From: a virus
Taxonomy: Duplodnaviria; Heunggongvirae; Uroviricota; Caudoviricetes
Virus record (IMG/VR): IMGVR_UViG_2703718859_000008
Strand: one strand, 5' to 3'
DNA: 6,524 bases
Every line of letters begins with the position of its first letter. Position 1 is the stretch's first letter. The translations under genes and the position numbers were made by a program. Below are positions 226 to 6,524 of this stretch, one piece after another. Under the pieces are notes generated by a model. The model ran no database searches and was not told the origin of the DNA. It saw only the letters and a program-made list of their open reading frames with translations.

Positions 226-417
226 ACCCACTTTTACTCCCCACTTTTCACAATTCCCCATCTCGTTAAAGGCGTGGGATTTGTAATTTTTATCATACTG
301 TTTCATAAGGATTTTTTTGCTCCCCACTTTTTGGGATGTATACAGGTCAAAAAGTGGGGGATCGTGTTTAAATTTTGTTAAATTCCCCATGCCCACCACT
401 TTTGCCCCCCACTTTTT
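226..417. repeat. iteron-like repeat cluster, putative replication origin
   Basis: Five direct copies of CCCCACTTTT or its CCACTTTT core at about 227-235, 239-248, 322-331, 396-403 and 407-416, plus one inverted copy (AAAAAGTGGGGG at 349-360). AT-rich spacers at about 281-320 and 361-390. The cluster lies immediately 3' of the helicase gene stop (416-418). Confidence 0.5.
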
Positions 418-2586: not shown

Positions 2587-2818
2587 AACCCCCCCCATTT
2601 TCACAATCAGCAATCAGGATAGCTTTGGCCTCATTCAGCGCCATATCAGCACTAAGTTGCATAACCGCCAGCGAATGAGGGACGAAAGTCCCGGCATATT
2701 CTGTTTCACTGGTGGCGTGCTTATGTGCCCTGTCCGCGATAACAGAAATATCAATCAGCGCGTGCATCAGCGTTTTGATGGCTTCGGCGGCTGCGTCCGG
2801 TGTGGTTTTATTGTGCAT
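2579..2818 (-). CDS. hypothetical small protein (79 aa, MHNKTTPDAAAEAIKTLMHALIDISVIADRAHK...)
   Basis: C-terminal part of the 228-aa track ORF. The portion upstream of the ATG at 2818..2816 is Pro/Arg/Leu-rich and looks like off-frame translation. AGGGGGA Shine-Dalgarno about 6 nt upstream of this ATG. Confidence 0.45.
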   Translation of the reverse strand: MHNKTTPDAAAEAIKTLMHALIDISVIADRAHKHATSETEYAGTFVPHSLAVMQLSADMALNEAKAILIADCENGGGYA

Positions 2819-3368
2819 AGGTTTCCCCCTGGCGAATACGGGCGGCAAATACAGCAACACAACCGGACGGGCAACGGCTACGCGCTTCGCGTTCCGTCCA
2901 GGCGGTGACGTGGATGATTTGATGGTCTGACGCGCCAAAGATGATAAAGCGCCAGAGAAAGGCGGTTTGAGAATGTACAAGGGTAGGGATAGTAGCCATG
3001 TTGGCAGCCTCCTCAGTGTGGTTAAGATAACCGCCACCGGAAACGCCAATTTCGCTGGTGGCGGACTGTACAGGGTTGGCGTAACCGGACACTGAAGAAA
3101 CCGGCGCGGATTGCTCCGCCCCCGTACAGCCCACCATTGATAAGGTGTGACTATGCGGCACAAAAAAACACGCGGGGCGCGTGTTATGCGCTTCAGTTTT
3201 GCCCAGGACGCCAATCCCGGCACCCGTTTTATGAGGTGCGCGGGAATCATAGCTATTTTCGACACTGGCGATCAACTGGTTTTTTTCTCCGATATTCAGG
3301 GCCAGAAAACGCCACACAAAGGCCGTTTGTGTGTGTACAAGGTGTGGTATATGATTTACGGCAACCAT
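2808..3368 (-). CDS. hypothetical protein with two paralogous small modules (IPxLVHxQTAFxWRF motif twice) joined by a Gly/Ser/Ala-rich linker; possible in-frame internal start at 2999
   Basis: 186-aa ORF, first gene after the repeat-bearing intergenic region. GAGGAG Shine-Dalgarno 6 nt upstream of ATG 3368. A second in-frame ATG at 2999..2997 is preceded by GAGGAGG and begins the second copy of the motif. Differences between copies fall largely at third codon positions, consistent with protein-level conservation. Confidence 0.5.
   Translation of the reverse strand: MVAVNHIPHLVHTQTAFVWRFLALNIGEKNQLIASVENSYDSRAPHKTGAGIGVLGKTEAHNTRPACFFVPHSHTLSMVGCTGAEQSAPVSSVSGYANPVQSATSEIGVSGGGYLNHTEEAANMATIPTLVHSQTAFLWRFIIFGASDHQIIHVTAWTEREARSRCPSGCVAVFAARIRQGETYAQ
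3161..3184 (-). terminator. intrinsic-terminator-like hairpin plus T7 tract inside the coding region of the 186-aa ORF
   Basis: On the minus strand, 8-bp stem AACACGCG/CGCGTGTT with a 3-nt loop, followed by a run of T (plus-strand A7 at 3161-3167). In frame it encodes NTRPACFF. Confidence 0.3.
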
Positions 3369-3439: not shown

Positions 3440-3545
3440 GTACATGAGATACACATAATCATCATGTGAGATACACGTTACATTGATGTGATATACATTT
3501 CAAGTTTTTTATATCTCACTTTACTGTATAGTGATATACACACAA
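3440..3545. promoter_or_regulatory. divergent promoter/operator region with phased GTGA(G/T)ATACAC repeats
   Basis: Direct copies at about 3445-3455 (TGAGATACACA), 3466-3476 (GTGAGATACAC), 3488-3498 (GTGATATACAT) and 3531-3543 (GTGATATACACAC), spaced about 21-22 bp or twice that. One inverted copy at 3511-3520 (ATATCTCACT). Lies between the start of the minus-strand operon (3368) and the plus-strand 100-aa gene (3563); AT-rich. Confidence 0.5.
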
Positions 3546-3562
3546 TAAACTGGTGATTAATT

Positions 3563-3865
3563 ATGTCCGTATACAAAAACGCAAAATCTCAAATGACAAC
3601 GCTCAGAGTCCCTCACGATGTCATGCAAGGCATGGAATCCGTTAAGCTGGACGGCGAGAGCAATGCAGGATTTATCGTAACCGCCATGCGCGGAGAAATA
3701 GCACGCCGCCAGGCAGAAGGCAGCGGAGAAAATCCCCTTGTGTCTTCACTGGATGCTCTGGCTAAGGTCGAACAAATCGGCATCAAAGCAGCGGAAGAAA
3801 TCGGGCAACTTGTCACCGTTGCACGCGAAGAACTCCAGCGTCGCAAGGCCAAAGAAGCGGAATAA
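3563..3865 (+). CDS. small putative DNA-binding regulator (100 aa; possible ribbon-helix-helix-like N-terminus), function unconfirmed
   Basis: Only convincing plus-strand ORF. GGTGA about 8 nt upstream of the ATG. N-terminal MTTLRVPHDV segment followed by predicted helices resembles a beta-strand-then-helix DNA-binding fold. Charged helical C-terminus. Followed by a plus-strand terminator. Confidence 0.5.
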   Translation: MSVYKNAKSQMTTLRVPHDVMQGMESVKLDGESNAGFIVTAMRGEIARRQAEGSGENPLVSSLDALAKVEQIGIKAAEEIGQLVTVAREELQRRKAKEAE

Positions 3866-4000: not shown

Positions 4001-4225
4001 TTACGCTGCCTTACCTGAATTAATGCGATCCCGGCTTTTAACCCATTCCATAACCTCGGACAGCAGCCAACCTACAGAACGACCGCCCAGATTAAGGCGT
4101 GACGGAAATCGCCCTTTTTTCTCCAGTTCGTAGCGTGTAGTACGACATACTCCAGTTAACTTACGACATTCATCCTCACGGATTACGCGATCTGATAGTG
4201 ATTGAAATTGTGTATTTTGATTCAT
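4001..4225 (-). CDS. alpA: AlpA-family (Phage_AlpA / excisionase-like HTH) transcriptional regulator
   Basis: 74-aa ORF. The segment CRKLTGVCRTTRYELEKKGRFPSRLNLGGRSVGWLLSEVMEWVKSR matches the conserved AlpA pattern (HTH, FP, LGxRSVGW, EW..R) as recalled from memory. Position near a P4-type integrase is typical. Confidence 0.8.
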   Translation of the reverse strand: MNQNTQFQSLSDRVIREDECRKLTGVCRTTRYELEKKGRFPSRLNLGGRSVGWLLSEVMEWVKSRDRINSGKAA

Positions 4226-4260
4226 AAAAAAACGTCCTCGAACGTTGCCGAACGAGGACG
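4226..4260 (-). terminator. intrinsic terminator after the int/264-aa transcript; hairpin also sequesters the alpA Shine-Dalgarno
   Basis: Minus strand reads CGTCCTCG-TTCGGCAACGTT-CGAGGACG followed by TTTTTTT and then immediately the alpA ATG. The inner part can extend the stem around a GCAA tetraloop. The only Shine-Dalgarno-like sequence for alpA (GAGGA, about 9 nt upstream) is the 3' arm of the stem. Confidence 0.55.
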
Positions 4261-4287
4261 ATTCTAGACGGTGGTAAAACGCCGTTT

Positions 4288-4320
4288 GTGTGATATCACA
4301 CTATCGGTACGTGATATCAC
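4288..4320. promoter_or_regulatory. pair of palindromic operator-like sites (GTGTGATATCACAC and GTGATATCAC)
   Basis: Perfect 14-bp palindrome at 4288-4301 and perfect 10-bp palindrome at 4311-4320, centres about 21 bp apart. The second overlaps the stop codon of the 264-aa gene. Core resembles the repeats at 3445-3543. Confidence 0.5.
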
Positions 4321-5111
4321 TTTTGACGTTTCGGAACGTCACCAATATCACGCCCCAAATATTTCTGCCATGTCTGCCTGTGAGTGCTGGGTAGCTCAAC
4401 CCCTCTTTGCGCAGCGATAACCTCTATCATTTCTGCAATTTTGGTTACTGGTGTCTCCTCCAAATCCACATCCTGCATCTCAGGAATCAGTTTTATGAGT
4501 GCAGGTATTATCTCGGCTTTTTTAGCTATGGTTTTCGGAGATTCTCTATCACCTCCGCCATATACAGGTTTTGCCGCATAATCAAAATTCGAAAGTTCAT
4601 TTTCGAAAACGACTAATCTTTCCTCCGGAATAAACAACCCCCAAATTCCAGCTAAATATAGCTTTTTGTAATGTGCTTTTATGGTGTAAAGATGTTGTGG
4701 TTTGACGTCAACAGCATTGTGCGGACCTGATAATTCAACATCCACAAGATACTGCGACGGAATTGCAAAAAAACCCTTTAAATAATTTGCATACCAACCT
4801 GGCAGTCTGAATATCCCTGTGTCGGTATCCTCAACATAATCATCATTGTAATGAAGATAAGATATCTTATACATATCACTATCTATTACATTTCGTTCTT
4901 TTATCTGTTCAACATAATAACTTTCGCTATCATCTTCAAAAATCACTCTAGCAGAGCACTTATTCTCACTTATTAATAAGTCGTTTTCACCAATATATGC
5001 ACATATTTCAAGTCTATTGGTTGCCCCAAGATGTAGAATATCATCCACCGTGCAGCCGAGTTTTTTTGCTGCCATAGGCAAAGTATAATATACACGAGGA
5101 AAATCTTTCAT
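4317..5111 (-). CDS. uncharacterised 264-aa protein with N-terminal HTH-like segment (excisionase/AlpA-like HTH_17 pattern) and unknown C-terminal domain; AT-rich cargo gene
   Basis: AAGGTGG Shine-Dalgarno 6-7 nt upstream. ATG overlaps the integrase stop (ATGA). N-terminal YYTLPMAAKKLGCTVDDILHLGATNRLEI resembles a helix-turn-helix. Region about 4400-5100 is visibly more AT-rich than the rest of the window. Confidence 0.7.
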   Translation of the reverse strand: MKDFPRVYYTLPMAAKKLGCTVDDILHLGATNRLEICAYIGENDLLISENKCSARVIFEDDSESYYVEQIKERNVIDSDMYKISYLHYNDDYVEDTDTGIFRLPGWYANYLKGFFAIPSQYLVDVELSGPHNAVDVKPQHLYTIKAHYKKLYLAGIWGLFIPEERLVVFENELSNFDYAAKPVYGGGDRESPKTIAKKAEIIPALIKLIPEMQDVDLEETPVTKIAEMIEVIAAQRGVELPSTHRQTWQKYLGRDIGDVPKRQK

Positions 5112-6328
5112 TTAGCCACCTTCAGCATAACAATATTTTCATGATTTCCAGCCAGCACATCGAGACGCTCAACCCATAGATTCAGAGCGTCCCGTTTCGC
5201 CTGTAAATAGCGTGAATGGTTATAGGTTTTTTGCTGACCGGGCATCTGATGCGCTGTGATGTGCTCCACGATATGCGGATCGATACCTAAATCGTTCAGC
5301 ATCGTTGTAAACGTGTGGCGAAAGTCATGCAGCGTCCAGTGTTCCTGGTTAAGCCGCTTATGCGCATTTCGCCCATATTGCGCTACCGTGGTATCTTTTT
5401 TCAGTTCTCCGAGCAATAACCCTGTATGTCGGTTCTGCTCCACCAGCTTCTGAATGAACGGCAAAATGCCATCGGGGATTGGCCTGAATATCGTTACCTT
5501 CGTTTTGCTGTGCTCTTTTGGCACTGTCCACAACATTTCTTTCAGATCCCATTCTTTGATCTCTGAAAGTCTGACCTCTGCCGTTCTGCACCCGAACACA
5601 ATCAGCAAGCGCATTAACGCGCTGTAGTAAGGCGCGAACACATCACCATCGATAGCGCGTAAAATTTCCTTTAATTCGCTGTTACTGTGCACCCTCTCGC
5701 GAATTTCTGCTCTCTTACCCACATCGCTGACGATCAAATCGTCCAGGGCATTACTGAACGCGTAGCGCCTCCTGCGGCAGAACTTTAGCGCCTGTTTGCA
5801 GGTTTGCATGACGTGCCCTGCTGCTACTGGTGCTTTTTTTCGTACACGGTCAAAACATGCGATCCACTGCCTTGTATCACATTTATCAAGAGGAATTGCC
5901 CCTATATGGCAAATGATGTGCTTATCCATACGTTGCACCAGCTTTATGTAGTCTTTGCGGTTATCCTTCGCATATTCATCCAGCCAGTAGTTAATCGCCT
6001 CCTTCACCGTAACGGGTTTTAGCGCTTCCTGTACTGTGGAGCACAACTCATAACGGGGGTTTTTACCCTCAGCCAGCCATGCCCGGCACTGTGCGCGTTT
6101 TTCCCTTGCAGCTTTCAGCGACAATTCAGGGTAAGCCCCCAGCTTTAACCGCTCTGCGGCAACCTCACGCCCTCCCGTTCGGTACCGGAAATACCAGGTT
6201 AATTTGCCGCCCTTTGAGTGTTTAATCTCCAGCCCGCCCCCGTCGGAGTAAAAACGCTCTTTTTCTGCCTGGACAGCCACCAATTTTTTTAACGTTGAAT
6301 CGCTCAGTTTGTTTAGTGCCTTTCCCAC
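5108..6328 (-). CDS. int: tyrosine recombinase / P4-type phage integrase (N-terminal arm-binding DUF4102-like domain)
   Basis: C-terminal catalytic motifs HDFRHTFTTMLNDLGIDPHIVEHITAH and a downstream Tyr. N-terminal GGGLEIKHSKGGKLTWYFRYR matches the arm-binding domain of P4-family integrases. Track ORF runs to 6439, but its first 37 codons are Cys/Val/Leu-rich and start on an unsupported GTG. The in-frame GTG at 6328..6326 is preceded by AAAGAGGA and begins ...GKALNKLSDSTLKK, typical of this family. Confidence 0.85.
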   Translation of the reverse strand: MGKALNKLSDSTLKKLVAVQAEKERFYSDGGGLEIKHSKGGKLTWYFRYRTGGREVAAERLKLGAYPELSLKAAREKRAQCRAWLAEGKNPRYELCSTVQEALKPVTVKEAINYWLDEYAKDNRKDYIKLVQRMDKHIICHIGAIPLDKCDTRQWIACFDRVRKKAPVAAGHVMQTCKQALKFCRRRRYAFSNALDDLIVSDVGKRAEIRERVHSNSELKEILRAIDGDVFAPYYSALMRLLIVFGCRTAEVRLSEIKEWDLKEMLWTVPKEHSKTKVTIFRPIPDGILPFIQKLVEQNRHTGLLLGELKKDTTVAQYGRNAHKRLNQEHWTLHDFRHTFTTMLNDLGIDPHIVEHITAHQMPGQQKTYNHSRYLQAKRDALNLWVERLDVLAGNHENIVMLKVAK

Positions 6329-6339
6329 TATCAGATCCT

Positions 6340-6524
6340 CTTTCCTGTCCTCCAACCTCAAAAAACTGACCACACAACTGACCACACATTTCGTTGAAGC
6401 TCTACGAACAACGACGAACAACAACAAACAAGAAAACACAATAATTCAATACATATCAAACACATACACAAACAACCACGAACACCCCCGAACCACAAAA
6501 AACACTAAATGAGAAAATACGGGT
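6340..6524. repeat. strand-biased AC-rich tract with short tandem repeats upstream of int (possible promoter / arm-site / att-proximal region)
   Basis: Plus strand is almost devoid of G and T over about 180 bp. Tandem ACTGACCACACA x2 at 6365-6388 and CGAACAAC x2 at 6405-6422. Immediately 5' of the integrase start. Confidence 0.35.

Follow-up and report, generated by a model that had tools for sequence, protein, structure and literature searches.

What role a short, repeat-rich spacer plays between a helicase gene and its downstream neighbour in a phage-satellite island is the question raised by the locus described here. The spacer lies in a stretch of 6,524 nt (the window), whose coordinates are used throughout; all long ORFs of the window are located on the minus strand, which is also the coding strand of rep and of the spacer. 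In a first-pass annotation, an iteron cluster at 226-417 had been put forward as candidate origin of replication, which would render the element an autonomously replicating, satellite-like island. The functional unit delimited in the present analysis, 214-418, is slightly wider. On the strength of comparative sequence evidence, it is very probably the replication origin of a PICI of the capsid-forming type (cf-PICI), with the 469-aa protein encoded upstream as the putative initiator and replicative helicase. An origin located 3' of rep is an expected feature of such an island; the part beyond expectation is a correspondence between one residue of the helicase and one base of its repeats.

Apart from the initiator-helicase gene (416-1825), the minus strand of the window carries ORFs for an integrase (5108-6439), a 264-aa protein (4317-5111), AlpA (4001-4225), an Ash-family protein (2808-3368) and a DUF4222 protein (1822-2121) as well as, at 1-213, the start of the gene following the spacer, which belongs to an 83-aa family (phrog_1231). 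An E. coli island located between thiM and rcnR (L001) matches the window at 98.3% identity; on about 14 kb, it carries int, rep, ssb, perC, a regulator gene of the AlpA type and packaging/capsid genes. Past the point where the window ends, this island continues with ssb and perC, followed by genes for major capsid protein, prohead protease, portal, head closure, connector, HNH, TerS and TerL. It therefore displays the gene set of capsid-forming PICIs, namely int, an AlpA-type gene, a rep-ori and own capsid, portal, protease, HNH, TerS and TerL genes on about 15 kb without tail genes (10.1101/2022.09.08.507074). Judged by this near-identical relative, the element in the window is presumably a cf-PICI as well, in line with its earlier description as a satellite-like island.

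Several other features of the island were noted. The 264-aa ORF between int and alpA, for which no Pfam, PHROG or PADLOC match was obtained, recurs in related E. coli islands under the name 'hypothetical protein' and represents a candidate accessory gene; PADLOC returned nothing for four uncharacterised ORFs of the window. Between this ORF and the AlpA gene (4282-4320), GTGATATCAC occurs twice, 21 nt apart and palindromic in each case, and may serve as a regulator-binding site. Additional repeats comprise three 24-nt direct copies (CACnTnA...GTGATATACA) at 3452-3540, upstream of the only plus-strand ORF (3563-3865; annotated as YlcI/YnfO family in L001), and a 46-nt pair at 2946-2991 and 3306-3351 in or near the Ash-family ORF, which look like an operator/regulatory region of the island. 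The rep-ori type described below is also carried by a circular Klebsiella pneumoniae record of 16,971 bp (CP018459.1, locus L093) deposited as plasmid. Its genes are cf-PICI-like (integrase, helicase of this family, capsid, adaptor, terminases), and they include one of 3.4 kb with the annotation tail tape measure protein, which would not be expected in an element described as devoid of tail genes. The circular record is compatible with an episomal form and could also be an artefact of assembly or a circle that was excised and does not replicate.

The spacer 3' of the helicase gene measures 202 bp (214-415) and ends at the start codon of the next gene. Allowing for up to one mismatch, CCCCACTTTT is matched seven times in the window, compared with a mean of 0.57 in dinucleotide-preserving shuffles (n = 200), none of which attained seven matches. 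Six of the matches are situated in the spacer and the seventh is an isolated one-mismatch copy within the helicase coding sequence (506-515), while the same scan disclosed no second cluster of such repeats elsewhere in the window. The direct copies read CCCCACTTTT on the plus strand and, with a repeat length of 10-13 bp, AAAAGTGGGG(N)G(C/T) on the coding (minus) strand. Starting from the helicase gene, the first iteron (407-416, AAAAGTGGGG) overlaps the helicase stop codon by one nucleotide and is followed at a distance of 13 nt by a second one with one mismatch (394-403, AAAAGTGGTG) and by a degenerate half-iteron, ATGGGGAATT (381-390). This proximal set (381-416) is separated by a first AT-rich spacer (361-380, GC about 35%) from a central pair (322-359), in which the sole inverted iteron (350-359, plus strand, exact) forms the palindrome arm nearer to the helicase gene and an exact direct iteron (322-331) the second one. 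The main AT-rich stretch (270-318), a candidate DNA-unwinding element, comes next, and the distal set (214-261) completes the spacer; it is composed of an exact 10-nt repeat of the half-iteron ATGGGGAATT (252-261), an exact iteron (239-248), one with a single mismatch (226-235, AAAAGTGGGT) and a degenerate copy, AGGTGGGGAG (214-223). Hence, the five direct copies (three exact, two with one mismatch) and the one inverted copy counted in the first-pass annotation were recovered, immediately 3' of the helicase gene as it had stated. The AT-rich stretches that it had seen among the repeats are likewise confirmed: GC content drops to a minimum of 22.5% at 281-320, and no 25-mer of the spacer forms a less stable duplex than the one at 284-308, which ranks fourth in this respect within the whole 6.5-kb window. 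Compared by eye, the AT-rich spacer deviates from the IHF consensus at two positions.

The cores of the central inverted pair are 32 bp apart, corresponding to about three helical turns, and enclose ACCTGTATA; the entire palindrome centre (336-347) reads ACCTGTATACAT on the coding strand. With arms of 12 bp, formation of a hairpin or cruciform is possible, and the predicted single-strand fold is stable (-11.7 kcal/mol, z = -5.25). As both arms additionally change together between alleles, in the manner of compensatory changes, the palindrome could be regarded as a hairpin of RNA or DNA in the interval from rep to its downstream neighbour, i.e. a terminator, an RNA-processing site or a stabiliser, with the other copies being incidental. 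However, on the coding strand the stem is not followed by a run of T, a scan of positions 1-700 gave neither a terminator nor a sigma-70-like promoter in 214-415, and Rfam returned, at a permissive threshold, just a meaningless lncRNA match (E = 0.67). Moreover, the four to six direct copies, which are unable to pair mutually, carry the same base change as the arms, and this change tracks residue 445 of the helicase, as described below. With direct copies, arms and protein all changing in step, the hairpin explanation fails and is considered highly improbable.

The presumed initiator was characterised by Pfam, PDB and Foldseek searches and by its RefSeq name, 'helicase RepA family protein'. 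Its 469 residues are predicted to form an N-terminal domain of about 125 aa, a helicase core (AAA_25, residues 151-318) and a C-terminal winged helix. The core matches Pfam AAA_25 (2e-43) and, at the sequence level, RepA of RSF1010 (PDB 1g8y, E = 0.007), while Foldseek retrieved chiefly RecA-fold proteins, RadA/Rad51 among them, with the full-length model and NCBIfam gave weak RadA matches only. Going by these sequence and fold matches, the helicase is classified as a RecA-fold, RepA/DnaB-like protein and not as an AAA+ one. The AF2 model of the core is of low confidence in places because of a shallow alignment. No primase domain was detected by Pfam in this 469-aa allele; longer relatives of 680-700 aa display a primase fusion (Prim_Zn_Ribbon and Toprim_3 in P0119).

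For the isolated segments 1-151 and 322-469, Pfam gave nothing even at E-values up to 10. Residues 400-469 (419-628) are nevertheless modelled by AF2 with pLDDT above 90 as three helices and a beta-hairpin wing, and winged helices prevail among the best 50 Foldseek PDB matches of this C-terminal domain, including HrcA, DtxR/IdeR (also as DNA complexes), MepR, PcaR and MCM. Their E-values are modest (0.01-0.1), as usual for a domain of 65 residues, at probabilities of 0.95-1.0. The C-terminal winged-helix-like region proposed earlier is thereby substantiated as a prediction. Within it, His445 (codon at 491-493), the candidate determinant of the fourth base in the GTGNGG core of the repeats, directly precedes the third helix (446-455), which is the usual recognition helix of such domains.

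The N-terminal domain of about 125 aa (1450-1825 for residues 1-125; 4601-4980 in locus L091 and 5242-5620 in locus L092) yields a confident alpha/beta model without any Pfam match; macrodomain-like and other low-scoring Foldseek matches of this domain were not trusted. It is 46% identical to the N-termini of EcCICFT073 Rep and Sakai Sp7 Rep. As reader of the repeats it was dismissed, as it is common to Reps with unrelated repeats and as a similar N-terminus is combined with GTGCGG repeats in locus L002; repeat specificity must hence reside elsewhere in the protein. Possibly, these Reps use the N-terminal domain as a common adaptor for a partner supplied by the host or the island.

When bacterial genomes were scanned, with each species represented once, 80 loci with relatives of residues ~135-469 emerged, 78 of which were long enough for comparison of the downstream DNA. 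The relatives are 51-72% identical and occur in Xenorhabdus, Pectobacterium, Serratia, Morganella, Pantoea, Kosakonia, Citrobacter and other genera of the Enterobacterales. Their N-termini vary, resulting in protein lengths of about 350, 455 or 680-700 aa. Following the helicase stop codon, the loci share the order direct copies, inverted copy, centre, direct copy, AT-rich DNA and more direct copies. The inverted/direct pair is present 3' of the stop in 62 of the 78 loci and begins 41-67 nt past it; its cores are spaced by exactly 30 nt in 60 of these 62 loci, compared with 32 nt in the window. A TGTATA-like centre is found in 58 of the 62, proximal direct copies in 59 and distal ones in 58. 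Direct cores amount to 4.9 per 246 nt downstream of the stop versus 0.55 within the coding sequence. In the remaining 16 of the 78 loci the palindrome pattern was unmatched; the 11 of them that were inspected turned out to be missed degenerate variants, deletions or decayed copies. Among the loci, L022 has lost most of its repeat cluster through an internal deletion, and in L022, L066, L071 and L073 the cluster is mostly gone or the helicase tail is frameshifted, probably identifying these four as decaying islands.

At shorter evolutionary range, alignment of eight E. coli origins locates the invariant columns mainly in the repeat cores and in the ACCTGTATA centre, whose columns are invariant or nearly so, and the spacers between them diverge. 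The repeat spacer is matched in 644 of 5,426 complete E. coli genomes, at up to three places in a single genome. In many O157:H7 and other genomes the central palindrome (299-361) is the sole part of the spacer still matching (87%); there, it falls into unannotated DNA beside the RepA-family helicase of a classical (non-capsid-forming) PICI situated between phoQ and roxA (L083). An additional observation stems from Xenorhabdus beddingii (L003), where a GTGAGG-type origin is followed, at ~4260-4370 and 225-310 nt past the helicase stop, by the apparent last codons of a second helicase and a second origin of GTGGGG type. By its sequence, this double origin looks like a tandem remnant, consistent with cassette exchange.

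Such an exchange is directly visible in E. coli ST130, where the same island backbone carries another rep ('DNA primase family'). Homologous DNA breaks off exactly at 213, with the start codon of the following gene, and is picked up again at 1749; the start of the 83-aa-family gene thus marks the distal border of an exchangeable rep-ori cassette, and the recombination junction on the other side lies 25 codons into rep, in the N-terminal domain of the helicase. In place of the repeats described here, the ST130 spacer holds about a dozen GGTAGA(G/A)GG-type repeats. In the same position, EcCICFT073 combines its own Rep with GGTAGAYA-type repeats, and Sakai Sp7, taken as representative of the EcCIEDL933-type island, its own Rep with TAACCCGCA repeats. 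Since the downstream gene is kept while rep and repeats are swapped together, the repeats belong with rep and not with flanking genes or island regulators. In the ST130, EcCICFT073 and Sp7 swaps as well as in the residue-base co-variation treated below, rep and ori vary together, as expected of repeats specific to the cognate Rep.

These swaps bear on two further explanations of the cluster. The repeats may well be bound by the winged helix and yet chiefly regulate transcription or translation of the downstream genes, as operator or roadblock separating rep from the ssb/packaging genes, with replication starting elsewhere or depending on the helper. The spacer is indeed embedded in a co-directional string of genes, the last degenerate repeat, AGGTGGGGAG, coincides with the Shine-Dalgarno sequence for the gene whose ATG lies at 213 (G->A in Asn-type alleles), and plasmid iterons are able to double as autoregulatory sites. 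A regulatory role would, however, be at odds with the lack of a promoter or terminator in the spacer, with the joint replacement of rep and repeats next to a retained downstream gene, with the restriction of such repeats to a single cluster in the window and with a layout that fits tested PICI/SaPI origins (flanking arrays, fixed-spacing inverted pair, AT-rich DNA), so that this explanation is regarded as unlikely. The other possibility, a packaging (cos/pac) or recombination site, starts from the HNH, TerS, TerL and integrase genes of the related island, whose products all need DNA sites. Yet the cluster is far from the int and terminase genes, and islands sharing the integrase side and the rcnR insertion site differ in their repeats when rep differs. 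As it is the helicase that the repeats follow, and neither terminase nor integrase, this possibility has next to no probability. For the spacer as replication origin, the association between helicase and repeats can be followed down to a single residue.

The fourth base of the GTGNGG core splits the loci into three classes (G, A and C), and this division follows residue 445 of the helicase, defined as x in the C-terminal motif K-x-F-x-R-W. His445 is combined with GTGGGG in 8 loci, Lys445 with GTGGGGG in 34, Asn445 with GTGAGG in 24 and Ser445 with GTGCGG in 7, and not a single exception was encountered in these 73 loci, in further E. coli alleles and in the Klebsiella circular element. As the loci are phylogenetically related, the 73-locus table amounts to a handful of independent switches, and close pairs are the informative cases. 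In the E. coli loci L085 and L089, the last 62 residues of the helicase differ only in the exchange of His for Asn, and the repeats read GTGGG(G/T) versus GTGAGG in all copies. The same H/N exchange along with the base switch distinguishes the window from L090 and from the O157 island L083, and L084 from L087. Asn recurs together with A in Xenorhabdus, Pantoea and Gilliamella, and Ser together with C in the Klebsiella element. In E. coli, close H/N pairs hence account for at least three of the independent switches, to which the Asn lineages of other genera are to be added. Throughout the eight aligned E. coli origins, all aligned repeat copies change the base in concert. In our estimation, chances are even that a one-residue code (G read by His or Lys445, A by Asn, C by Ser) redirects the origin specificity of these self-loading RepA/DnaB-like initiator-helicases. 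If so, satellites sharing a cell could keep orthogonal replicons by means of one residue and a concerted repeat change, the rep-ori pairs would be naturally orthogonal and engineerable, and a bacterial SF4-type helicase would act as its own origin-recognition protein.

Based on the repeats and their conservation, on the exchange of cassettes, on the co-variation of residue and base and on the predicted fold, all of them established by computation, we infer a course of events that comprises binding, melting, self-loading and firing after helper-phage induction. The C-terminal winged helix would read the AAAAGTGGGG repeats, with His445, positioned at the start of the recognition helix, contacting or selecting the fourth base of the GTGGGG core. 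Copies of the protein would occupy both flanking direct arrays and the central inverted pair, which, owing to its fixed spacing and conserved centre, could organise two oppositely oriented assemblies. Subsequently, strand opening would take place in the AT-rich DNA, whose least stable part is 284-308, or at the palindrome centre, and the RecA-fold RepA/DnaB-like ring would load itself, in parallel to the model for SaPI Reps (PMC9371898). Priming would be supplied by the host, considering that this allele is without a detected primase domain, and the island contributes its own SSB gene two genes downstream. That the iterons are read by their cognate initiator-helicase, as the first-pass annotation had suggested, is accordingly in keeping with the conserved layout, the cassette swap, the co-variation, the winged-helix prediction and the PICI precedent. 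A concrete candidate origin with its putative initiator is thereby available for widespread enterobacterial phage satellites. Additionally, specificity between His445 and the fourth base of GTGNGG could explain how replicon cross-talk between co-resident islands is avoided, and it could be exploited in engineering as a source of orthogonal replicons. Literature searches brought up no account of this RepA-helicase rep-ori type; the iterons in Fig. 2a of PMC6092414, which were not read, might be an earlier depiction.

Compared with replicons already known, the layout had initially been likened to PICI/SaPI as well as to plasmid origins, and the plasmid part of this comparison does not stand. Classical iteron plasmids such as pSC101, R6K, RK2 and pPS10 rely on Rep_3 proteins with tandem winged helices and without helicase, on iterons of 17-22 bp and on DnaA boxes. 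In contrast, the 469-aa protein contains no Rep_3 domain, the repeats have 10-13 bp, and the 18 matches to the DnaA box TTWTNCACA (up to one mismatch) compare with 14.6 expected and are not clustered in the spacer, which contains a marginal one at 244-252. Since these matches do not exceed chance, a DnaA-dependent, plasmid-type origin is not supported. IncQ plasmids come closer insofar as the helicase core of the window protein belongs to the same family as RSF1010 RepA (1g8y, AAA_25). An IncQ origin consists of iterons and AT-rich DNA as well, and three distinct proteins provide iteron binding (RepC), helicase (RepA) and primase (RepB'), whereas the predicted winged helix is fused to the helicase in the window; domain searches of the window ORFs revealed neither RepC and RepB' nor any other replication protein. 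Hence, the locus was not assigned to the IncQ replicons, with which it has only the helicase core in common. Phage P4 alpha, the multifunctional replication protein of another E. coli satellite, offers a parallel in that its C-terminal domain binds short repeats, as predicted for the window protein. P4 alpha, for its part, unites a primase with a superfamily III helicase, and its octamer sites are distributed over two separated regions, ori and crr.

The PICI part of the comparison, on the other hand, holds. Origins of Gram-negative PICIs are located immediately 3' of rep and are composed of iteron sets around an AT-rich region, and the rep-ori of EcCICFT073 drives plasmid replication (Fillol-Salom et al. 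2018, PMC6092414). This element shares with the window type the backbone of int, AlpA-type regulator gene, DUF4222 gene, rep, 83-aa gene, ssb and perC, the origin in the spacer right after rep with iteron sets around AT-rich DNA, and the N-terminus of Rep, at the identity stated above. Beyond this domain, its Rep (584 aa, 'DNA primase family protein') shows no relationship to the RepA-like helicase, its origin holds GGTAGAYA-type repeats, and of the two replicons it is EcCICFT073 for which replication has been tested. For the EcCIEDL933-type island, replication was observed after helper induction (10.1101/2022.09.08.507074). Its representative Sakai Sp7 has the capsid-forming architecture of L001 and an iteron-rich spacer 3' of rep; the Rep is a 710-aa primase-type protein with nothing but the N-terminal domain in common, and the repeats are TAACCCGCA.

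In terms of working, the SaPI Reps are probable counterparts. They belong to the AAA+ class, with superfamily III and MCM helicases as relatives, and act with 3'-5' polarity; their C-terminal winged helix binds iterons immediately downstream of rep, with the iterons on each side pointing in opposite directions (PMC9371898). Like SaPI Rep1 and PriRep5, the window protein would combine initiator and helicase in a single polypeptide with a C-terminal winged helix, here a predicted one, and the repeats are again found just 3' of rep in two sets flanking AT-rich DNA, with primase fusions occurring in some relatives. The repeats themselves are longer (10-13 bp as opposed to 5-6 bp in SaPIs), and the flanking arrays all share one orientation, with a single copy inverted, instead of opposing each other; this copy is part of a palindrome of fixed 30-32-bp spacing with conserved centre, unlike in SaPIs. 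Membership in the SaPI Rep family, defined by the AAA+ fold, was rejected in view of the core matches to AAA_25, RSF1010 RepA and RadA/Rad51. The helicase thus appears SaPI-Rep-like in its working without being a homologue, and the PICI order of rep followed by its own iterons would hold also with a RepA/DnaB (RecA-fold) helicase.
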